A stretch of DNA of 64,000 nt from an uncultured beta proteobacterium (GTDB lineage Bacteria > Pseudomonadota > Gammaproteobacteria > Burkholderiales > Gallionellaceae). The stretch covers positions 445,047 to 509,046 of the forward strand of contig CAVVAD010000002.1 in assembly GCA_963746105.1 (NCBI GenBank). Reading direction: 5' to 3'. The stretch's first letter is position 1. Every line of letters starts with the position of its first letter. The notes under the pieces are model-generated. The model was not told the DNA's origin. It searched no databases and saw only the letters and a program-made list of their open reading frames with translations. Below, piece after piece: positions 5,008 through 62,930 of this stretch. A program made the position numbers and the translations under genes.

Positions 5008-5133
5008 CCGACTCCGGATTTATTATAAGCAAAGCCGCGTGTCGCATTGGCGACCACAACGCCCCGGTAACAAAAGCTTCACGCAGCAAGATTAGTATCG
5101 CCCGCTTACACAGGCCAGGCGGGGAGCTGCCAG

Positions 5134-5841
5134 ATGGTTAACAGCGAACACACTTCAAGGCAATATGACGCAGAACTTGAATCCGTCCGCTGTCGCGTGC
5201 TGCAGATGGGCGACTTGGTGGCAAACCAGGTCCGTCTCGCCGTTGCGGCGCTGGCCAAAGGCGATACGGCGTCGATAGATCGCATCATCGCGGATGATCA
5301 CCGTGTCAATGCGCTGGAAGTGGCGATAGATGAAAGTTGCAGTCACATCATCGTGCGCCGGCAGCCGACCGCAGGCGACCTGCGTATCGTGATGATGGTG
5401 ATCAAAACGATCACCGACCTGGAACGCATCGGCGATGAGGCAAAGAAGATCGCTCTCACGGCCAAGCGGCTGAAACACAGGCAAGGCCTGACCCTGCCCC
5501 GTTTCAACAAGATCAATCATGTGGCAAAGCTGACGCTGGACATGCTGCTCAAGTCGCTGGACGCTTTTGCCAACCTGGATATATCCGCTGTCGCGCAGGT
5601 GGTGCGCCAGGACGAGAAGGTGGACGAAGAGTTTCGCAACATCATGCGCTACCTCGCCACTTTCATGATGGAAGACCCGCGTACTATTTCCAGCGCGCTG
5701 GAGATCCTGTTTGTCGCCAAGGCCATTGAACGCATCGGCGACCATGCCAAGAACATGTCCGAATATGTCGTGTATATGGTCAAGGGGCGCGATGTGCGCC
5801 ATATCACCGTGGATAAGATCGAGCGCGAAGTGCAGCAATGA
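5134..5841 (+). CDS. phoU: Phosphate signalling protein PhoU
   Basis: HTSRQYDAEL, RQPTAGDLR, DLERIGDEA, KAIERIGDHAKN. Confidence 0.97.
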   Translation: MVNSEHTSRQYDAELESVRCRVLQMGDLVANQVRLAVAALAKGDTASIDRIIADDHRVNALEVAIDESCSHIIVRRQPTAGDLRIVMMVIKTITDLERIGDEAKKIALTAKRLKHRQGLTLPRFNKINHVAKLTLDMLLKSLDAFANLDISAVAQVVRQDEKVDEEFRNIMRYLATFMMEDPRTISSALEILFVAKAIERIGDHAKNMSEYVVYMVKGRDVRHITVDKIEREVQQ

Positions 5842-5940
5842 TCCGCAGGGATCACCATGCCCTGCAATTCAGACGCCAAAATCTGCACTATCCCATCCGC
5901 GCACAAGCGCTGCTCGCCTATTGGGATTTTCAGGGATAGA

Positions 5941-5973
5941 CTGTAATAATCCAGTAACATAACCGCCATAATA
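5941..5973 (+). promoter_or_regulatory. Pho box (PhoB site) upstream of pstS
   Basis: Three 7-mers at 11-bp period separated by A/T-rich 4-mers: CTGTAAT-AATC-CAGTAAC-ATAA-CCGCCAT-AATA, resembling CTGTCAT-A(A/T)A(A/T) repeats. Confidence 0.7.
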
Positions 5974-6087
5974 TGCAACCCGCAACAAACTTTGCCGGAT
6001 TCACCACTTTGCCGGCCTGACCCGGGATCTTGACCGGGAATCACGGATGACCGCAGCCCGCAACTCAATATAGATTATGGAGAGATC

Positions 6088-7137
6088 ATGAACAGCAAAC
6101 TGAAGCAACTCATCATCGGCATCGCCGCCGCTACTGTGGCGGCCTATGCCGGCGCCAGCCAGGCTACCGACATCACCGGCGCCGGCTCGACCTTTATCTA
6201 CCCGATCGCCGCCAAATGGGCTGATGCCTACAAGACCAAAACCAATATCGGCCTGAATTACCAGTCCATCGGCTCCGGCGGCGGCATCAAGCAGATCGAA
6301 GCCAAGACCGTGGATTTCGGCGCCTCCGACATGCCGATGAAGAAGGAAGACCTGGACGCGAATGGCCTGATGCAATTCCCGGCCATCAATGGCGCCGTGG
6401 TTCCGGTCGTGAATTTGGAAGGCATTGAAACCGGCAAGCTGAAACTGGACGGGACTGTATTGGCCGACATCTACCTGGGCAAGATCACCAAGTGGAATGA
6501 TCCGGCGATCGCCGCACTGAACAAGGACATCAAGTTGCCCGATGCGGACATCACCGTGGTGCACCGCTCCGACGGTTCGGGCACCAGCTTCATTTTCACC
6601 AACTATCTGTCCAAGGTCAGCGCAGACTGGAAGTCCGCTGTGGGCGAAGGCACGGCGGTCTCCTGGAAAGCGGGCACCGGCGGCAAGGGCAACGAAGGCG
6701 TGGCCTCCTATGTGCAGCGCATCAAGGGTTCGATCGGTTATGTGGAATATGCCTACGCGCTGCAGAACAAGATGAACTACGTGCAAATGAAGAACCACGA
6801 CGGCCATTTCATCCAGCCGAATATCGAGTCCTTCAAGGCAGCGGCAGCGGGCGCGCGCTGGGACAAGGCTCCGGGCTTCTACGAGATCCTGACCAACGAA
6901 CCGGGCAAGAACAGCTGGCCGATCACCGGCTCCACTTTCGTGCTGATGCACAAGGTTCAGGACAAACCCGAGACCGCCAGGGAAGTGCTGAAGTTCTTCG
7001 ACTGGGCCTACCGCAATGGCGGCCAGATGGCCGAGTCGCTGGACTACGTGCCGATGCCTGAATCGGTAGCCAAACTGATCGAAGCCGCCTGGAAAGCACA
7101 AATCAAGGACGCCGCAGGCAAACCGGTCTGGAAATAA
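6088..7137 (+). CDS. pstS: Phosphate ABC transporter periplasmic binding protein
   Basis: ITGAGSTF, YQSIGSGGG, DFGASD, HRSDGSGTS, IGYVEYAYA. Confidence 0.98.
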   Translation: MNSKLKQLIIGIAAATVAAYAGASQATDITGAGSTFIYPIAAKWADAYKTKTNIGLNYQSIGSGGGIKQIEAKTVDFGASDMPMKKEDLDANGLMQFPAINGAVVPVVNLEGIETGKLKLDGTVLADIYLGKITKWNDPAIAALNKDIKLPDADITVVHRSDGSGTSFIFTNYLSKVSADWKSAVGEGTAVSWKAGTGGKGNEGVASYVQRIKGSIGYVEYAYALQNKMNYVQMKNHDGHFIQPNIESFKAAAAGARWDKAPGFYEILTNEPGKNSWPITGSTFVLMHKVQDKPETAREVLKFFDWAYRNGGQMAESLDYVPMPESVAKLIEAAWKAQIKDAAGKPVWK

Positions 7138-7197
7138 GGCTTTCTGGAAATATGCCCGGGGTGCGTGGCTGACACGGCACAAGCTTAGGCTATAATC

Positions 7198-7226
7198 GCG
7201 GGGGCTGATGCCCCCGCTGTTTTTTT
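7198..7226 (+). terminator. Stem-loop plus U-tract between pstS and pstC
   Basis: GCGGGGG-CTGATG-CCCCCGC followed by TGTTTTTTT. Confidence 0.7.
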
Positions 7227-7242
7227 AACCGATCATACAACC

Positions 7243-8205
7243 ATGCAGATGTTTTCACAGGAAACGCGCCTTAAACGACAAGCGGTGTTCGACTTGCTGT
7301 TCCGCAGCCTGACACGCGTCTGCGCATTCGGCGTATTGTCGCTGCTGGCGGCGATCATCGGTTCGCTGGTGGTGGGCAGCCTGCCTGCGATCCATGCTTT
7401 CGGCCCGGGCTTTCTGGTCAGTTCCGACTGGGACCCGGTCAACGACAGGTTCGGCGGCCTGATCCCGATCATCGGCACGCTGGTCACCTCGGGTATCGCA
7501 CTGCTGATCGCGATTCCGGTCAGCTTCGGCATCGCACTGTTCCTCACCGAGCTTTCGCCGCGCATGCTGCGCCGCCCGCTGGGCATCGCGATCGAATTGC
7601 TGGCGGGCATTCCCAGCATCATCTACGGCATGTGGGGATTGTTCGAATTTGCGCCGCTGTTCGCCGACCACGTCGAGCCGTGGCTCAACAAGCATGTCGG
7701 CACGCTGCCCTACATCGGCCCGTTCTTCTCCGGCCCGCCCATGGGCATCGGCCTGCTGACTGCCGGGATCATCCTCGCGATCATGGTGATCCCGTTCATC
7801 GCATCGGTGATGCGCGACGTGTTCGATGTGGTACCCACGCTGCTGAAGGAATCCGCTTACGGACTCGGCGCGACCACCTGGGAAGTGATGTGGCAGGTGG
7901 TGCTGCCCTACACCAAGGTGGGTGTGGCCGGCGGCATCATGCTGGGGCTCGGGCGCGCATTGGGCGAAACCATGGCCGTCACCTTCGTGATCGGCAATGC
8001 GCACGACCTGAGCCAGTCCCTGCTGATGCCGGGCAACAGCATCTCCTCGGCGCTGGCCAACGAGTTCACCGAAGCGGTCGGAGACCTGTACACATCTTCG
8101 TTGATCGAGCTCGGCCTGATCCTGTTCTTCATCACTTTCGTGGTCCTGTCGATCGCGCGCTACATGCTGTACAAACTGGGGCAGCGCGAAGGCCAGGCTG
8201 CCTGA
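7243..8205 (+). CDS. pstC: Phosphate ABC transporter permease PstC
   Basis: [39 protein letters not shown]. Confidence 0.98.
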
Positions 8206-11820: not shown

Positions 11821-13632
11821 TCAACCGATTGCGACCTTCGCGAGCCGCGCCTTGCGGCCGTAAATCAGATTGACCATCGCGCGCGAGATCAGCACCGCGC
11901 TGAACATCGAGGTCATGATGCCCAGGCACAGCACCACCGCAAACCCCTTGATCGGGCCGGAACCGAACATGAACAGCGCAACCCCGGCGATGAAGGTGGT
12001 GACGTTGGAGTCGAGGATGGTGCCGAACGCCCGGTCATAGCCGGCATGGATCGCCGCCTGCGGCGTGACGCCGTTGCGCAGCTCTTCGCGGATGCGCTCG
12101 TTGATCAGCACGTTCGCGTCGATCGCCATGCCCAGCGTCAGCGCGATGCCTGCCATGCCCGGCAGGGTCAGTGTCGCCTGCAGCAGCGACAGCAGCGCGA
12201 CCAGCAACAGCAGGTTGGCCGCCAGCGCCAGCACGGAAATGACGCCGAACATCAGGTAATACGCGATCATGAATATCGCCACCAGGGTGAAGCCGATCTT
12301 GGTGGAATTGAACCCGCGCGCGATATTCTCCGCCCCCAGGCTGGGGCCGACGGTGCGCTCCTCGATGATCTCCATCGGAGCGGCCAGGGCGCCGGCGCGC
12401 AGCAGCAGCGCGGTATTCTGCGCCTCCATCGAATCCATCGATCCGGTGATCTGCACCCGCCCGCCGCCGATTTCCTCGCGGATAACCGGGGCCGTCACGA
12501 TCTCGCCCTTGCCCTTTTCGAACAGGATGATCGCCATGCGCTTGCCGACGTTTTCGCGGGTTGCATCCTTGAACAGCCTTGCACCCACGCCATCCAGATT
12601 GATATGCACGGCGGCTTCATTGGTGCGGCTGTCGAAACCCGGCTGTGCGTCGCTGATGCGCTCGCCGGTCAGTATCACCTGCTTTTTCACCAGCATCAGG
12701 TTGCCGGAACGATCCTTGAACATGTCGTCGCCGAATGGCGGCGGCGCGCCGGCGACGGCCTGATTCGCCTCGTCCACCATGCGCACTTCCAGCGTCGCGG
12801 TCCGCCCCAGGATATCCTTGGCGCGGGCCGTATCCTGCACCCCGGGAAGCTGGACCACGACGCGGTCCGCACCCTGCTGCTGGATCACCGGCTCGGCCAC
12901 GCCCAGCTCATTGACGCGATTGCGCAAGGTGACCAGATTCTGCTGCACTGCGGACTCCTGGATGCGATGCACGGCCTCGGGCTTGAGTGTCGCCAGCAGC
13001 ACGAATGCGCCGCCATCATCCTTGTCGTTCAGAGTGTAGTCGCCGAATTGCTGGCCGATTTCGGCTTCGCCCTTGCTGCGCGCAGCGGCGTCGCGGAATT
13101 TGACCGTGAGCACGTCGCCGTCGCGGCTGATCCCGGAATAGGGGATGTTCTGCTCGCGCAATCCGCTGCGCATGTCGCTGGCAGCCGCATCCAGCGCCTT
13201 GGTCAGCGCCGCCTGCATGTCCACCTGCAGCAGAAAATGCACGCCTCCGCGCAAATCCAGCCCCAGATACATCGGCAACGCATTCAAACTGGCCAGCCAT
13301 TGCGGCGAACGCGGCAACAGATTGAGGGCCACCACATAATCATCCCCCAGTTGACCGGCCAGCACATCCTTGGCTTTCATCTGGTGATCGGTATCCGCAA
13401 AGCGCGCCTTGACGCTGCCGCCGTCCAGTTCGGTCAGATCGGGGTTGAGGTTGGCCGCCTTGAGTATCGAGTCCACCCGTGCCAGCAGCGCGGCATCAGC
13501 CTTGAGGCCGGTGCGCGCAGGCGATACTTGCACGGCGGGTGATTCGCCGTAAAAATTCGGCAGGGTGTAAATCATCCCCGCCACCAGTACCGCCAGGATC
13601 AGCAGGTTTTTCCACAATGGATATTGGTTCAT
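11821..13632 (-). CDS. secD: Protein translocase subunit SecD
   Basis: Start moved to ATG 13632 (MNQYPLWKN); LGLDLRGGVHF, RNRVNELGVAEP, VGPSLG, GMAIDANVLINERIREE. Confidence 0.98.
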   Translation of the reverse strand: MNQYPLWKNLLILAVLVAGMIYTLPNFYGESPAVQVSPARTGLKADAALLARVDSILKAANLNPDLTELDGGSVKARFADTDHQMKAKDVLAGQLGDDYVVALNLLPRSPQWLASLNALPMYLGLDLRGGVHFLLQVDMQAALTKALDAAASDMRSGLREQNIPYSGISRDGDVLTVKFRDAAARSKGEAEIGQQFGDYTLNDKDDGGAFVLLATLKPEAVHRIQESAVQQNLVTLRNRVNELGVAEPVIQQQGADRVVVQLPGVQDTARAKDILGRTATLEVRMVDEANQAVAGAPPPFGDDMFKDRSGNLMLVKKQVILTGERISDAQPGFDSRTNEAAVHINLDGVGARLFKDATRENVGKRMAIILFEKGKGEIVTAPVIREEIGGGRVQITGSMDSMEAQNTALLLRAGALAAPMEIIEERTVGPSLGAENIARGFNSTKIGFTLVAIFMIAYYLMFGVISVLALAANLLLLVALLSLLQATLTLPGMAGIALTLGMAIDANVLINERIREELRNGVTPQAAIHAGYDRAFGTILDSNVTTFIAGVALFMFGSGPIKGFAVVLCLGIMTSMFSAVLISRAMVNLIYGRKARLAKVAIG

Positions 13633-18193: not shown

Positions 18194-19388
18194 ACGTGTC
18201 GTGGTGGGCATGTCCGGCGGGGTGGATTCCTCGGTCACCGCCTTGCTGCTCAAGCAGCAGGGCTACGACGTGGTCGGCCTGTTCATGAAGAACTGGGAAG
18301 ACGACGACAACGACGAATATTGTTCTACGCGCCAGGACTTGCTGGATGCAGTCTCGGTCGCCGACACCATCGGCATCCCGATCGAGGCAGTGAACTTCTC
18401 CAGGGAATACAAGGAACGCGTATTCAGCTCCTTCCTGCACGAATATCAGGCCGGGCGCACCCCCAACCCCGATATCCTGTGCAATGCAGAAATCAAGTTC
18501 AAGGCGTTTCTCGACCACGCGATGCAACTCGGGGCCGGCAAAATCGCCACCGGACATTATGCGCAAGTGCGCGAGGTGAATGGCCTGTTCCAATTGCTCA
18601 AGGCCGATGACGGCAGCAAGGACCAGAGCTACTTTTTGCATCGCCTGAATCAGATGCAGCTGAGCCATGCGCTGTTTCCGCTGGGAAAACTGCTGAAGTC
18701 GGAAGTGCGCGACATCGCAAAACGGCATGGCCTGCCCAATCACGCCAAGCGTGACAGCACCGGTATCTGCTTCATCGGCGAGCGCCCGTTCCGCGAATTC
18801 CTGAATCGCTATCTGCCGACCCAGCCGGGGGAAATGTGGGCCCCCGGCACCTTAGCCGGCAGGCCCGGTTGCGGGAGGAGCTCCAATGTGGTTGCTCCCA
18901 CAACTGAGTGCTCCGCACCACCGTCTCGCAACCCCACTCCGGAAGGCCATGTGGTCGGGCAGCACATCGGCCTGTCGTTCTATACGATAGGCCAGCGCCA
19001 GGGTCTGGGCATAGGCGGAGCCAGGCAGGCTTCCGGAGAGCCGTGGTTCGTCGCGGGCAAGGATATCGCCAACAATCGCCTGATCGTGGTGCAGGGGCAT
19101 GACCACCCCGCACTGCTTGCCAGGCGTTTGACTGCGCTGGACAGCCACTGGATCAGCGGTTCCGCACCGCTGCTCGATCATCCCTATGCCGCCAAGACGC
19201 GCTACCGGCAGGCCGATGCACCCTGCCGGCTCACCCGCGTCGAGGGCAATTCCTGCGAGATCGAGTTTGACCAGGCGCAGTGGGCCGTGACGCCGGGACA
19301 ATCGGTGGTCGTCTACGACGGCGCCGTCTGTCTGGGAGGAGCAATCATCGAACAAGGCAGCGTATTCATGGAACAAAGGCCGGGCTGA
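18186..19388 (+). CDS. mnmA: tRNA 2-thiouridylase MnmA carrying an in-frame insertion of about 32 aa
   Basis: [56 protein letters not shown]. Confidence 0.98.
18840..18935 (+). repeat. 96-bp repeat-derived in-frame insert in mnmA
   Basis: Interrupts PGEMW|TPEG; contains CCGGTTGCGGGAG, the exact reverse complement of MITE 62078-62090; internal hairpin GTTGCGGGAG...CTCCCACAAC. Confidence 0.75.
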
Positions 19389-21772: not shown

Positions 21773-23203
21773 CTATTTGAAATTGCGCCGTAGCGTCAGC
21801 GAGAAATCGCTGCGCTCATAGGTATATGCGGCAACATTGGACACATTCAGATAGCGCACCAGTTGCGGCCGAACAATCCATTGATTGTCCAGATACCAGT
21901 TCATCCCCAGCGTGAGGTCGCTCAGGCGGTCGATACGCTGACTCGAGATTGCCGGGTCGACATTGCTGAAAATGCCATATTGCTGGCCTGCGCTGAAGAA
22001 CAGTTTCGCCTGGTCCGCCACGGCCGCCAGCCCGGCAACGCGAAATCCGGCGAAATTCTTGACGCCATCGGTTCTTCCGCCGCCGGGATTGGAGGCTGTG
22101 GACGGGCCGACATCATTCTCTGTTCCAAGGTACAGGCTGCCGGACAGGTTAGACTTCGCATCCTGCAGCATATGCTGCCAGCCTGCACCCGCAACCGCCT
22201 GATTGATGTCATTCAGCTGAAGCGTGGTATTGGCATAGCGGTATTGCACATACTGCCCGAACACGTTCAACTGATTGCTCGCATCGACGCTATGGCGCCA
22301 ATCCCCATTGAGCCCGGATGTATTGTAATATTGCGCACCACCCAGGGTGTTCTGCCCCCCCAACATGCCGACACGGTAACGGTCAGTTCCCGTGCCATAG
22401 ATCACGCCAACCCGTCCATTCAGGCCGAATGAATCAAACCCGTTTTGCCGGTAGTAGTCGCGCTGATTGATATCCGCTCCGGCATACAGCCGCAAGCTGG
22501 GGTCCAGATCGTGGCTGATCTCGCCGCCTGCTGCCAGCCCATAATAATTGTCGGCCAATTCCGAGGTGGTCGGGTACAGGGTTGGAATGATGACATTGTC
22601 CGGGGTTTCGGTCGCATTATTGATGTTGGTATCGTGCCCGACCGACCCCTCTATATAGCCACTGACCCGCGTCGATTTTCCGGATTGGCGTACTGCAATT
22701 TCATCCAGATATTTCTGGATGGTCGTGCGCGCCGCATCGGATGGATTTTGCTCCAGCACCGTTTCAAATTCGGTCTGAGCGCGCTGCATATCGCCCAGTT
22801 GATAATAGGCGCGCGCCAGATCCAGGCGTGCCCCGGCGTAATCGGGATCCACCGCCAGCACCCGCTCAAAAGCCAGCGTAGCTTTGTCCGGCTTGCCGCT
22901 ATCCAATGCGGCGATGCCGATCAGGTAATCGAAGCGCACCTCGCCGGAACGGTCGAACTCGAACGGCTCAAGCAGTTGGTAGGCTTGCTCGGCCTTGCCT
23001 GCTTTCATCAAAGCCTCGGCATCGCGCAACAGCATTTCCCCGGCATCGATTTCAACCGGCTTTTGCATCCGCGGTTCGGGACGCTGCCGGCCGTTTTGCA
23101 CCGGTTCCGCGCACACCCCGCCGCCGGCTGCCAGCATCAGCCCAGGCAGCACCCAACATGCCGATCTTGCAATTTTCATGTCATCCACCGCATTTTCCTG
23201 CAT
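21773..23203 (-). CDS. TPR-containing outer-membrane beta-barrel (Slam/DUF560-like)
   Basis: Signal peptide; TPRs (FDYLIGIAALDSGK..AFERVLAVDP..ARLDLARAYY); C-terminal amphipathic strands ending SLTLRRNFK; alternative start 23179. Confidence 0.75.
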   Translation of the reverse strand: MQENAVDDMKIARSACWVLPGLMLAAGGGVCAEPVQNGRQRPEPRMQKPVEIDAGEMLLRDAEALMKAGKAEQAYQLLEPFEFDRSGEVRFDYLIGIAALDSGKPDKATLAFERVLAVDPDYAGARLDLARAYYQLGDMQRAQTEFETVLEQNPSDAARTTIQKYLDEIAVRQSGKSTRVSGYIEGSVGHDTNINNATETPDNVIIPTLYPTTSELADNYYGLAAGGEISHDLDPSLRLYAGADINQRDYYRQNGFDSFGLNGRVGVIYGTGTDRYRVGMLGGQNTLGGAQYYNTSGLNGDWRHSVDASNQLNVFGQYVQYRYANTTLQLNDINQAVAGAGWQHMLQDAKSNLSGSLYLGTENDVGPSTASNPGGGRTDGVKNFAGFRVAGLAAVADQAKLFFSAGQQYGIFSNVDPAISSQRIDRLSDLTLGMNWYLDNQWIVRPQLVRYLNVSNVAAYTYERSDFSLTLRRNFK

Positions 23204-60428: not shown

Positions 60429-60767
60429 ATGAACTCTGCAAACGACTTGACCAGCAGGCAATGCAAGCCCAGTACGCCGGGCTCGCTTCCGCTATCAAAC
60501 TCCGAGGCGGACAAGCTGATGCGGCAACTCGAAGGCTGGAAACATTACGATCACCTTATCGGGAAGACTTACCATTTCAAGAATTACTACGAGACCATCG
60601 CATTCGTCAACGCCGTCGCATGGCTTTCACACGGCGAAGACCACCACCCGGAACTCACCGTCACCTATAACAGCTGCCAGGTCGAATATACCACCCACTC
60701 GATCCACGGCCTTTCTGAAAATGACTTCATCTGCGCTGCAAAAGTGGACGCGCTGTTCAAGATTTGA
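60429..60767 (+). CDS. phhB: Pterin-4-alpha-carbinolamine dehydratase
   Basis: FKNYYETIAFVN, EDHHPEL, THSIHGLSENDFICAAKVD. Confidence 0.93.
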   Translation: MNSANDLTSRQCKPSTPGSLPLSNSEADKLMRQLEGWKHYDHLIGKTYHFKNYYETIAFVNAVAWLSHGEDHHPELTVTYNSCQVEYTTHSIHGLSENDFICAAKVDALFKI

Positions 60768-61906
60768 GCGAGCTTTTGCACGGCCAGGTTATCGCCGCAT
60801 TCGGCCGCCAGTATCTGGTGCGGCTGGATGACGGCAGCGCAATAGCCTGCCTGACGCGCGGCAAAAAAAGTGAAGTGGCCTGCGGCGATCTGGTGGAAGT
60901 CAAACGCACCGCAGCAGCCACATCCGCAAATGACACAGGCGCACAGGGCGTAATCGAACATATCGCACCGCGCCACTCGCTGCTGCATCGCTCGGATGCG
61001 TTCCGCGAAAAACTCATCGCCGCCAACGTCACCCAGATCATCGTCGTAGTCGCCGCCGAACCTTCGTTCAGCGACGAACTGCTGGCACGTTGTCTGGTCG
61101 CGGCTTTCGATCAGAAACTCGAGGTGCTGATCGTGCTGAACAAATGCGACCTGCCCGATGCCGCAGCCGCCGCGCGCAAACGGCTGATCCCCTATTCCGC
61201 CATCGGCTATCGCGTGCTGGAACTCAGTGCCAAAAATCCTACCAGCCCCTCCGGGCTGGAAAATGCTGAACAACCTGCCCGTCGTAAACTGGAGGGACGA
61301 TTGCCGCCTGTCCCCGAAGGGGGGAGGATTGTGGAGGGGGTGGATGCCCTGCGCCCATTCCTGATTGGCCACACCAGCGTGCTGGTTGGGCAATCCGGCA
61401 TGGGCAAATCCACGCTGATCAATGCGCTGCTGCCCGATGCACAGGCCGCCACCCGTGAGATATCCGCGGTGCTGGATTCCGGCAAGCACACCACCACCCA
61501 CGCGAGGCTGTACCGGATTGATGATGGCGCGGCTGCGACACGTTACCGCGAAGCGGCCGATTGCACCCGCAAGGAGTACGCCGGCGGGTACCCGGCAGCT
61601 TCGCTGCCACCCTACCGCAACGTGAACAGCCGCCAGACACCCATCCCTCACCAGGAGGCTCCGCCACACCGTGTCGGGGTGTCCGGATTAATCGACTGCC
61701 CCGGTGTGCAAGCCTTCGGCCTGCATCACCTGAGCTTCGGCGGGATAGAACAGGGCTTTGTGGAATTCGCGCAGTATCTCGGCCAGTGCCGCTTTCACGA
61801 CTGCCGCCACGCGCATGAACCCGGCTGCGCGCTGCGCGCTGCGGTTGCACAAGGAAAGATCGCTGCGCGCAGGCTGGAGCTGTTCCGGCAGATCGCCGGC
61901 AAGTAG
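60764..61906 (+). CDS. rsgA: Ribosome small subunit-dependent GTPase RsgA carrying two in-frame insertions
   Basis: TTG start; AANVTQ, VLNKCDL, GQSGMGKSTLIN, GKHTTT, IDCPG, C-terminal CRFHDCRHAHEPGC zinc site. Confidence 0.96.
   Translation: MSELLHGQVIAAFGRQYLVRLDDGSAIACLTRGKKSEVACGDLVEVKRTAAATSANDTGAQGVIEHIAPRHSLLHRSDAFREKLIAANVTQIIVVVAAEPSFSDELLARCLVAAFDQKLEVLIVLNKCDLPDAAAAARKRLIPYSAIGYRVLELSAKNPTSPSGLENAEQPARRKLEGRLPPVPEGGRIVEGVDALRPFLIGHTSVLVGQSGMGKSTLINALLPDAQAATREISAVLDSGKHTTTHARLYRIDDGAAATRYREAADCTRKEYAGGYPAASLPPYRNVNSRQTPIPHQEAPPHRVGVSGLIDCPGVQAFGLHHLSFGGIEQGFVEFAQYLGQCRFHDCRHAHEPGCALRAAVAQGKIAARRLELFRQIAGK
61235..61330 (+). repeat. 96-bp inverted-repeat-bounded in-frame insert 1 in rsgA
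   Basis: Left AATCCTACCAGCCCCTCCGGG vs right CCCCGAAGGGGGGAGGATT; encodes NPTSPSG...PEGGRI. Confidence 0.7.
61526..61678 (+). repeat. In-frame insert 2 in rsgA (about 50 aa), homologous to the MITE internal module
   Basis: GCGGCTGCGACACGTTAC (61529-61546) is the exact reverse complement of GTAACGTGTCGCAGCCGC at 62101-62118 and 62296-62313. Confidence 0.8.
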
Positions 61907-61925
61907 CCGCTCAATATTTGTTTAG

Positions 61926-62389
61926 GGAACCTCTGATTAAGTCCCACATGGCCGCGCACTCGGTTTTGCGGGATGGGATGCAAGGCGCGCGAGGCAGCGA
62001 ATGGTTGATCCCCTTCGTGAGCAGCCCTGACACGGGGCGGCGCAGCCGTGCGGTGCGGGAAGGGCTGCCAGCGGCTGCTCCCGCAACCGGCTGCTACGGA
62101 GTAACGTGTCGCAGCCGCAGTGCAACGCAGCAGACCGCCCGCAAAACCAGTGCCCACAGGGGTTGCGACAAAATCGCGCGCTCGCGGCGTTGTGCTCCTC
62201 GGCATCGTAGTCCCGGCTGCCGCCATGACACGGTGCGCGTAGCGTCGGTGCGGGAGTGGCGGCAGGCGGCTGCTCCCGCAAGCGGCTGCTACGCAGTAAC
62301 GTGTCGCAGCCGCTACCTTCGTCGCACGCCTTGCGATCATCGCGATTTTGTCAGCAACGCGGCTCATGGAGGACTTAATCAGAGGTTCC
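61926..62389. mobile_element. 464-bp non-autonomous IS5-like MITE
   Basis: Perfect 19-bp TIRs GGAACCTCTGATTAAGTCC / GGACTTAATCAGAGGTTCC; 4-bp TTAG direct repeats at 61922-61925 and 62390-62393; no transposase. Confidence 0.9.
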
Positions 62390-62930
62390 TTAGTCCCAAC
62401 TGCCGCCAACCCTGGTGCCCCAGCTTGTTCAGCGTCTCGACATTGTTGTCGGCGATCTGTTCGGCATCCGGAAAAGCCGCCACGGCGCGATCCACACTTG
62501 TTTCGCGCAGCAAGTGCAGCGTGGGGTAAGGCGAACGGTTGGTGTAATTCTCGATGTCTTCCGGCGCGGTGCCGGTGAACTGATACTGTGGATGCAGGCT
62601 GGCAACCTGGAATGCGTCTTTGAATTCCGGTTCTGCCACCGCAAGATCGACCGTGTCCAGAAAATCGTTGAAATCGAGGAAGTCGGTCAGCACATGGGGA
62701 TGGATCAGCAACGTGGTCTCGACCTTGTCGGGATCGGCATGTTGCAGCGCACGCAGCTCTGTCATCAAATCCTCCAGCAAGGCCTCGGGCGTGGTTGCCG
62801 CGCTGACCGCATAGCGTATCTGCTTCCTGACATGCACCGCTTTGGCAAAGGGGCAGAGGTTCAGGCCGATCACGGCTTTTTCCAGCCAATGTTGCGTGAC
62901 GGCGATGACGGTTTCGGCTTCGGTCAGCAT
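62379..62930 (-). CDS. DUF1415 family protein (stop codon supplied by the MITE end)
   Basis: WLEKAVIGLNLCPFAK, ETTLLIHP, FLDFNDFL, QVASLHP, YTNRSPYPTLHLLRE. Confidence 0.9.
   Translation of the reverse strand: MLTEAETVIAVTQHWLEKAVIGLNLCPFAKAVHVRKQIRYAVSAATTPEALLEDLMTELRALQHADPDKVETTLLIHPHVLTDFLDFNDFLDTVDLAVAEPEFKDAFQVASLHPQYQFTGTAPEDIENYTNRSPYPTLHLLRETSVDRAVAAFPDAEQIADNNVETLNKLGHQGWRQLGLRNL

Follow-up and report, generated by a model that had tools for sequence, protein, structure and literature searches.

Why does a bacterial gene end inside the terminal repeat of a transposable element, and what does that element carry? The question is raised by a DUF1415 gene in a 64,000-nucleotide stretch of DNA (hereafter the window) from contig CAVVAD010000002.1 of an uncultured member of the Gallionellaceae. 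Between this gene and the convergent rsgA gene lies a 464-bp element that encloses two related palindromic sequences, here called modules m1 and m2. A preliminary description, made from the letters alone, took the element for an IS5-type MITE (a miniature transposable element with inverted repeats) with a duplicated cargo that had rewritten the end of the DUF1415 protein. Comparison with other genomes and with metagenomes suggests a related but different history. Very probably, the element is an IS5-type MITE that was invaded twice by an unrelated palindromic mini-element before it inserted into the end of the DUF1415 gene.

The insertion and its empty site

The ends of the element can be read directly (Table 1). 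Two copies of the 19-mer GGAACCTCTGATTAAGTCC, and no more, are present in the window; they are inverted and identical at 19 of 19 positions, where chance predicts no occurrence, and outside each copy stands TTAG. The perfect repeats and the target duplication were therefore as first described. The IS5 subgroup duplicates a 4-bp YTAR target, and TTAG is such a sequence. Metagenome contigs cover both junctions: the left one in run X2 (61730–61949, one mismatch), and the right one in run X1 (62366–62516). The two runs are independent, and the junctions are not an assembly artefact. Contigs of runs X1 and X2 contain the filled site only, and no empty-site contig was found in either.

The element entered DUF1415 at its third-from-last codon, 9 bp upstream of the stop. 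Removal of the element together with one TTAG restores CTA AAC AAA TAT TGA, which reads QLGLNKY-stop. At present the frame enters the terminal repeat by 9 bases and terminates at the TGA there (62379–62381), giving QLGLRNL. The last three residues have changed from NKY to RNL, and the protein still has 183 residues. The convergent genes rsgA and DUF1415, formerly 4 bp apart, are now separated by about 470 bp of highly structured DNA.

Relatives support this reconstruction. The 119 closest DUF1415 proteins (77–88% identical) have tails such as LGLDKY, DKL, DVL, DVP, SK, and PK; the best match ends in LGLDKY, and none of the 119 ends in RNL. An exact look-up of the DUF1415 protein of the window itself found no record. 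The syntenic loci nearest to that of the window, L237 and L238, encode RsgA proteins 93% and 90% identical to that of the window. In both, the DUF1415 and rsgA stops lie 4 bp apart with no element between them, which is exactly the spacing that the reconstructed locus predicts. Their empty-site sequence is TATTTATCCAGTCCC, compared with TATTTGTTTAGTCCC in the reconstructed window. With excision restoring the expected tail, RNL absent from the relatives, and two empty sites in hand, the proposed rewriting of the C-terminus holds good.

A native, structured spacer or terminator between convergent genes, with no transposon involved, might look much the same: the sequence sits exactly between the two genes, its structure is extreme, and it contains one weak terminator-like hairpin. 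That reading is refuted by the empty sites. The spacer of the syntenic relatives is 4 bp; the element has perfect terminal repeats and a target duplication, and more than 100 copies stand in unrelated contexts. Nor is the number of terminators above that of shuffled sequences, since the region holds a single terminator-like site (62331–62345 plus a T run, on the plus strand) against 0.9 expected, which is not significant. No evidence of a promoter was found in the element, and a Pfam scan of the open reading frames (ORFs) that cross it gave no match.

For the host gene, the consequences appear slight. The altered residues lie beyond the Pfam domain and in a part of the protein that varies among relatives, so the exchange of tails is probably neutral. 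The terminal repeat, read inward, contains stops in two of the three frames (TGA at bases 9–11 and TAA at bases 13–15), so that a gene clipped near its end is terminated again at once. Such stops presumably limit the damage to clipped genes. By itself, then, the MITE is an ordinary, well-documented case of element tolerance, in which the length of the DUF1415 protein was exactly kept.

An IS5-type MITE family

A scan of a species-representative genome collection found the exact 19-bp repeat in at least 116 genomic stretches. Among the matches listed, to which the counts in this paragraph refer, the hosts are mostly Gallionellaceae, Nitrotoga, other Burkholderiales and Nitrosomonadales, and Gammaproteobacteria. 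Exact repeats adjoin YTAR in 66% of cases, versus about 1.6% by chance. They pair into 78 elements, including 30 of 260–290 bp and three of 1149–1241 bp. Identical 4-bp flanks border 38 of the 78 pairs, and 33 of these 38 fit YTAR.

A few assemblies that bear the labels Chloroflexota, Acidobacteriota (Granulicella, Terracidiphilus, Edaphobacter), or Nitrospirales have the exact repeat as well (L034, L059, L067, L068, L096, L107, L115, and L116). This reflects either spread across phyla or contamination during binning.

At three loci (L030, L086, and L008) the repeats enclose IS5-family transposase genes or their remnants. The insertion sequence (IS) at L030 (160–1308, 1149 bp) has the exact repeat at both ends and an ORF of 315 residues. 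That at L086 (5324–6531) has repeats with 1 and 3 mismatches and likewise an ORF of 315 residues, and the repeats at L008 have 0 and 3 mismatches. The L030 and L086 ORFs match NCBIfam NF033581, the IS5 family transposase (E = 1e-101 and 5e-99), as well as Pfam DDE_Tnp_1 (7e-30) and DUF772 (2e-18). Each is 50–55% identical to annotated IS5-family transposases, for example the IS1021 type of Ralstonia. The two are only 52% identical to each other, which indicates conservation of the repeat throughout a broad IS5 lineage.

The L086 locus, a gammaproteobacterial chromosome, also displays the small and large forms side by side (5032–7773): a 288-bp MITE is followed directly by two tandem ISs (5324–6531 and 6536–7773), all with the same terminal repeats.

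Canonical copies of the MITE measure 273–276 bp (L009, L028, L048, L023, L073, and L085). The canonical sequence of about 275 bp is predicted to fold into a Y composed of a terminal-repeat stem and two arms (−81.9 kcal/mol, z = −7.8). Across 18 canonical copies, 27 of the 90 consensus pairs stay paired through changes on both sides. These arms account for the two long stems remarked upon in the preliminary description. Both stems exist, one complementary at 11 of 11 positions and the other at 12 of 12 in its core (62167–62178 with 62341–62352), but they are conserved arms of the MITE and were not built around the modules. As single-stranded DNA, the whole 464-bp element has a predicted fold of −153.9 kcal/mol (z = −11.8).

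The window element thus has the defining features of an IS5-subgroup MITE: ISs with the same repeat encode IS5-family transposases, sister MITEs are many, and the flanks fit YTAR. It would presumably be mobilised by a transposase of that type. The preliminary description had proposed that the genome be searched for sister MITEs with and without the module and for an autonomous IS5 partner. In the genome collection both are present; repeat-bearing copies and transposases of the cognate type exist, and no relative shares the RNL ending. The literature that was searched contains no account of this MITE family. BLAST of the MITE against a plasmid collection gave no match, and its repeat is absent from viral contigs.

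Two modules nested in the MITE

What distinguishes the window copy from the canonical MITE is its two modules. The canonical MITEs named above lack both modules, which appear in the alignment as two clean extra blocks. With 62021–62118 and 62219–62313 taken out, the remaining backbone of 271 bp can be aligned over its full length with L009 (88.7%) and L028 (86.9%). Metagenome contigs document the same two states. In runs X3 and X4, MITE contigs without m1 join 62017 to 62122 through CAACGAGC; in run X1, a MITE contig without m2 joins 62218 to 62315 through ACG. The modules of about 90 bp first placed at 62028–62118 and 62227–62313 are both present, but each begins slightly farther to the left (Table 1).

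Are m1 and m2 two copies of a single captured piece, duplicated internally so that one copy came to lie in each arm? They are 86% identical, have the same orientation, and share the B stem GCGGCTGC/GCAGCCGC. However, the arm sequences that flank them are not duplicated. Their A stems differ, each with a matched partner (GCAGCCCT/AGGGCTGC versus GCCGCCAT/GTGGCGGC). Moreover, the nearest relatives of m2 occupy the same site in other MITEs (L051, 93%; L080, 89%), so that m2 resembles the L051 copy more than it resembles m1. Among sister MITEs, L192 has a module at site 1 only and L080 at site 2 only, whereas L217 has modules at sites 0 and 2, and L051 at sites 0, 1, and 2. More than 100 loci have the module but no MITE. 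Duplication within the element is therefore rejected; this origin is largely refuted and retains only a marginal probability. The earlier notion of a duplicated cargo falls with it, given a canonical MITE of about 275 bp without modules, A stems that differ, and sister MITEs with one, two, or three modules.

Module flanks mapped onto the canonical MITE define five sites, at about positions 48–52, 80–86, 93–107, 196–201, and 222. In the consensus fold all five positions are unpaired (21 module copies in 15 MITE-bearing loci). The window element has modules at sites 1 and 2. Beyond the combinations given above, a module stands at site 1 only in L160 as well, at site 0 only in L124, L210, and L176, at the site near 80–86 in L168, and at that near 222 in L135 and L139. 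The modules at site 0 belong to two lineages whose stems are unrelated, and those at site 1 to at least three. At site 2, the modules of L051, L080, L217, and the window are of a single lineage, with small compensated changes only.

A sister MITE at another locus, L203, stands in a TTAA target and contains the same m1 with the same stems. The module therefore was aboard before transposition and travelled with the MITE. This locus also contains an extra 33-bp insertion, AAACGAAGCGCAGCGCAGTTTCGAGGAACGGCC, in arm 2 (around 12355–12390), which is absent from the window copy.

At L191 (335–608), a single module has the left flank of site 1 and the right flank of site 2. It looks like the product of a recombination deletion between two nested modules, in which the middle of the MITE was lost.

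These observations bear on a second alternative, in which module-bearing MITEs arose only once, and shared positions reflect inheritance and recombination rather than a preference of the module for certain sites. The single lineage at site 2, the recombinant of site-1 and site-2 modules at L191, and the transposition of a module-bearing MITE as a unit (L203) all fit such an origin. Nevertheless, it would leave unexplained the unrelated A stems of the two lineages at site 0 and of the three or more at site 1, as well as the unpaired position of all five sites. In addition, the window backbone is closer to the module-free L009 and L028 (87–89%) than to the module-bearing L080 and L051 (about 80–83%). 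We regard a single origin as unlikely, though worth keeping in mind. Repeated invasion of the MITE by modules remains the preferred reading.

The preliminary description had suggested that the MITE might be either a vehicle for the module or a sink of it. It is both: a sink, as a repeated target of the module, and a vehicle, as L203 with the same m1 attests.

Table 1. Features of the window (positions in the 64,000-nucleotide stretch)
Feature	Position	Strand	Remarks
Composite MITE, 464 bp	61926..62389		backbone of canonical type (about 271 bp) with modules m1 and m2 nested in it
Left copy of TTAG target duplication, 4 bp	61922..61925		read directly
Left terminal inverted repeat, GGAACCTCTGATTAAGTCC	61926..61944	+	exact match; identical to ends of the 1149-bp IS in L030
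Right terminal inverted repeat	62371..62389	-	gives DUF1415 its codons R-N-L and TGA stop
Right copy of TTAG duplication	62390..62393		read directly
Basal stem of MITE arm 1, 5' half	61962..61972		11/11 complementary to 62138-62148
Basal stem of MITE arm 1, 3' half	62138..62148		partner of 61962-61972
Basal stem of MITE arm 2, 5' half	62162..62178		pairs with 62341-62358
Basal stem of MITE arm 2, 3' half	62341..62358		overlaps the region's only terminator-like site
Nested palindromic module m1, 98 bp	62021..62118	+	site 1, in arm 1, distal and unpaired
Nested palindromic module m2, 95 bp	62219..62313	+	site 2, apical loop of arm 2
DUF1415 gene, 183 residues	62379..62930	-	Pfam PF07209, E = 1e-71; domain ends at residue 176
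Former DUF1415 stop (TCA on + strand)	61911..61913	-	reconstruction; left of the MITE, 4 bp from the rsgA stop
rsgA, 380 residues, convergent to DUF1415	60764..61906	+	frame untouched by the MITE
Related module copy in rsgA, in-frame, 51 extra residues	61529..61680	-	interrupted by a further short repeat
Diverged module copy in mnmA, 99 bp (33 residues), in-frame	18837..18935	+	72-80% identical to modules elsewhere

The module outside the MITE

The module is mobile in its own right; its family far exceeds that of the MITE in size and is for the most part independent of it. A pattern derived from its right half matches at least 120 metagenome stretches, and the MITE repeat lies within 500 bp in only about one tenth of them. 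The hosts are Gallionellaceae, together with many metagenome loci without an assigned host. In 86 distinct full copies the length ranges from 95 to 105 bp, with modes at 98, 100, and 101.

The plan of the module is regular. An 8-nt stem A is followed by GACACGG, a small hairpin, TGG TGCGGGA, and the 8-nt partner A'. After 2–3 nt comes an 8-nt stem B, then TCCCGCAAnCGG, a second small hairpin, TAACGTGTC, and finally the 8-nt partner B'. The second half approximates the reverse complement of the first, so that the whole is an imperfect palindrome and both strands fold alike. In keeping with this, each half also matched the other half on the opposite strand in a scan for module halves split by a gene-sized gap. 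Two extra matches of the half-module scan in the window were rejected as ordinary coding sequence. The 8-bp stems are hypervariable between lineages, and the two mirrored loops of 32–34 nt that they close are conserved.

The stems change in concert. In a test of 53 non-redundant copies against 500 shuffles, 16 of the 16 stem pairs of A/A' and B/B' change on both sides, and 96% of the stem cells are paired, versus 81% in shuffles. The covariation score is 0.391 versus 0.105; none of the 500 shuffles reaches the former value, and controls slid along the alignment score at most 0.096. The conserved motifs GACACG/CGTGTC and TGCGGGA/TCCCGCA, themselves complementary, show no covariation. G-U pairs occupy about 1% of stem cells and are not commoner than other mismatches. 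Together with the two-fold symmetry, this scarcity of G-U suggests that DNA, rather than one strand of RNA, is under constraint.

Strong helix covariation around conserved loops is the usual signature of a functional RNA. Might the MITE carry the module as functional cargo, in the form of a gene for a structured RNA or of an RNA that regulates in cis (ribozyme, riboswitch, or small RNA)? Its two 8-bp helices and small hairpin do covary very strongly around conserved loops. Against this stand the low frequency of G-U, which points to constraint at the level of DNA; the imperfect palindrome, with both strands folding alike; the in-frame position in many unrelated genes; and the arrays with a 99-bp period described below. 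Furthermore, no Rfam family matches at either threshold: the Rfam 15 covariance models at gathering score detect only a tRNA in the whole window, and permissive thresholds yield nothing credible in the element and five module loci. An RNA function is thus improbable, and a DNA element is the better description.

Modules also form tandem arrays, at about 15 loci; the period is 99 bp, and B' of one unit adjoins A of the next. In these arrays the unit behaves as if it had been cut from a circle.

Which enzyme moves the module is not apparent from its surroundings. Among 1582 clustered ORFs within 2.5 kb of modules, with Pfam assignment of the recurrent ones, there was no recurrent transposase; the recurrent neighbours are housekeeping genes. 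BLAST of the consensus module against the plasmid collection gave no match. The module is present in only four viral contigs and the MITE repeat in none, which gives no hint that a phage serves as vehicle. Searches of Pfam, Rfam, and the literature, including the motif strings and the encoded peptide, matched nothing to the module.

A general preference of modules for palindrome centres was rejected: complementarity of at least four pairs between the 8-nt flanks occurs in 11 of 86 copies, versus about 10 expected. Only for copies inside the MITE is a preference for loops supported. The idea that the stems are copied from the target, or that an internal guide chooses the target, was not adopted either; empty MITE sites lack stems A and B', and the left flank repeats B' in one sublineage only.

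In that sublineage, where B' is G(G/A)AGGTGC, the 7–8 bases to the left of the element repeat B' (L121, L149, L223, L227, and L233); MITE-borne copies do not have this feature. The repeat could be a duplication, a guide-like choice of target, or the remnant of a tandem array.

At other loci (L118, L125, L134, and L133; L150, L151, L222, and L226), the conserved right half of the module is joined to unrelated left halves, which suggests that half-elements make up a modular family.

Modules within genes

The presence of the module in mnmA and rsgA, pointed out in the preliminary description, is confirmed, and both copies preserve the reading frame (Table 1). When the window MnmA is aligned with Escherichia coli MnmA (2DER), residues 220–252 of the query are unmatched. 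RsgA has 380 residues, compared with 296 in relatives, owing to in-frame insertions of 33 and 51 residues. The module copy, which accounts for the longer insertion, is absent from relatives in runs X3 and X4, where 61512 joins 61691.

The 33-residue insertion in RsgA is of another kind. It occupies 61235–61333 (99 bp, NPTSPSGLENAEQPARRKLEGRLPPVPEGGRIV), is absent from L237 and L238, and is rich in hairpins (CCAGCCC..GGGCTGG, TCCCCGAAGGGGGGA). It is unrelated to the module and has a weak match in L060.

The rsgA module copy is itself about 55–70 bp overlong, with a third short repeat inside it (about 61561–61630). This repeat matches L151 (86%), L142 (94%), L149, L182, and L161. The small repeats of this genome therefore show three levels of nesting.

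Elsewhere in the window, 28 bp (22174–22201) within the ORF at 21773–23203 are 87% identical to the centre of the module. They may be a remnant or a chance match.

In-frame modules also occur in genes of other environmental bacteria. Pfam-confirmed cases include RecG, with two copies in L163 (734–940) and, at the corresponding position, a single copy in L121; MurD, with three tandem copies in L129 (3427–3732); LigA in L153; and SucA in L127. ORFs in L161 and L131, which by eye resemble sulfite or nitrite reductase, contain the module in the same peptide frame. Indeed, modules in genes all read in one frame, giving ...PSGAGxxASHLLPQTAGFASNVSE. This peptide also occurs in small proteins of Gallionella and Sideroxyarcus: CoA-binding proteins, rhodanese, DedA, and DUF3641. 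Sequence words from rsgA appeared in RNA runs at 4%, in one run only.

A model for two-level transposition

The simplest history consistent with these observations has two layers. In the outer layer, a DDE transposase encoded elsewhere would recognise the 19-bp terminal repeats and act in trans. It would excise the MITE and insert it at YTAR with 4-bp staggered cuts, leaving in this case the TTAG duplication. In the inner layer, the MITE lineage would have been invaded twice by the palindromic mini-element of 95–101 bp before it transposed to its present position. The modules would have settled in unpaired parts of arms 1 and 2 and then ridden along with the MITE, which as a module-bearing unit presumably inserted at TTAG, 9 bp before the DUF1415 stop.

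How the module itself inserts is a matter of conjecture. The strictly Watson-Crick stems, the two-fold symmetry, and the loop preference suggest that it is recognised, and possibly inserted, as folded DNA, with a bias toward the exposed loops of the MITE. If so, insertion of these mini-elements would work on folded DNA.

A broader proposal follows more tentatively, and we hold it with somewhat more doubt than belief. The modules may represent an undescribed and very widespread class of palindromic mini-elements, 95–101 bp long, that insert in-frame into essential genes (RecG, MurD, LigA, SucA, RsgA, and MnmA), are apparently translated, amplify with a period of 99 bp (33 codons), and colonise the loops of transposons that spread them.

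Several observations weigh against the account of a MITE invaded twice and then inserted. The window contains neither a homologue of an IS5-type transposase nor a second copy of the MITE. The autonomous ISs with the GGAACCTCTGATTAAGTCC repeat come from gammaproteobacterial assemblies, and they have only this repeat in common with the MITE; internal sequence is not shared. The empty site of the relatives is CCAG and not TTAG, so the window lineage must have differed from them at three of six bases before the insertion, with TTAG in place. Module insertions in the MITE lack a clean duplication; 3–8 canonical bases are replaced, and the insertion chemistry is unreadable. Finally, shared module positions may in part reflect recombination between MITEs rather than repeated insertion, L191 being such a recombinant.

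The wider interest of the locus lies in its two-level parasitism, in which a palindrome of 97 bp colonises the loops of a 275-bp MITE and is spread by it. It offers a system, defined by sequence, for studying the choice of target by tiny non-autonomous elements, the tolerance of proteins for insertions of 33 residues, and stems that turn over fully yet stay perfectly paired. It also calls for caution in annotation, because oversized RsgA, MnmA, MurD, and RecG proteins in Gallionellaceae assemblies may hold repeat-derived segments.

Relation to known elements

REPINs are paired inverted REP (repetitive extragenic palindromic) sequences mobilised by RAYT (REP-associated tyrosine) transposases. 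The module resembles them in several respects: it is about 100 bp long, has two inverted and related halves each with a small hairpin, is non-autonomous, and occurs in many copies, with constraint on the structure of a DNA hairpin. What covaries in the module is its pair of 8-bp stems, one closing each half, rather than one long hairpin. In contrast to REPINs, its loops are conserved and its stems variable. Modules are often intragenic and in-frame, whereas REPINs are extragenic. Modules also form tandem arrays of 99-bp period, and neither a RAYT nor any other transposase is recurrently adjacent to them.

Rickettsia palindromic elements, of about 100–150 bp, lie in-frame within conserved coding genes. 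They share with the module the property of palindromic insertion that adds peptide and leaves the frame unbroken (33 and 51 residues here). In contrast, module hosts are free-living Gallionellaceae and other Proteobacteria of sediment, soil, and groundwater, and the module amplifies in tandem inside genes and inserts into another transposon. No relation in sequence is apparent; the literature on the Rickettsia elements yielded no match to the module sequence.

Nested transposons are common in plants and occasional in bacteria. As in those cases, the inner element here is carried along when the outer one moves. Here, though, both partners are tiny and non-autonomous (about 275 and 97 bp), and the inner element recurs at five loop positions of the outer fold.

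The outer element finds its closest parallel in other IS5-derived MITEs. Like them it is small, lacks a transposase, has the ends of an IS with a DDE_Tnp_1/DUF772 transposase (NF033581), duplicates YTAR, occurs in many copies, and folds strongly upon itself. Unlike them, this family has an interior unrelated to the ISs found with the same repeat and a conserved, Y-shaped fold of two arms with compensatory changes, and the window copy holds two nested elements of another kind. The MITE is thus a further member of a well-documented class; a MITE colonised at its loops by a second-order mini-element is the new part.

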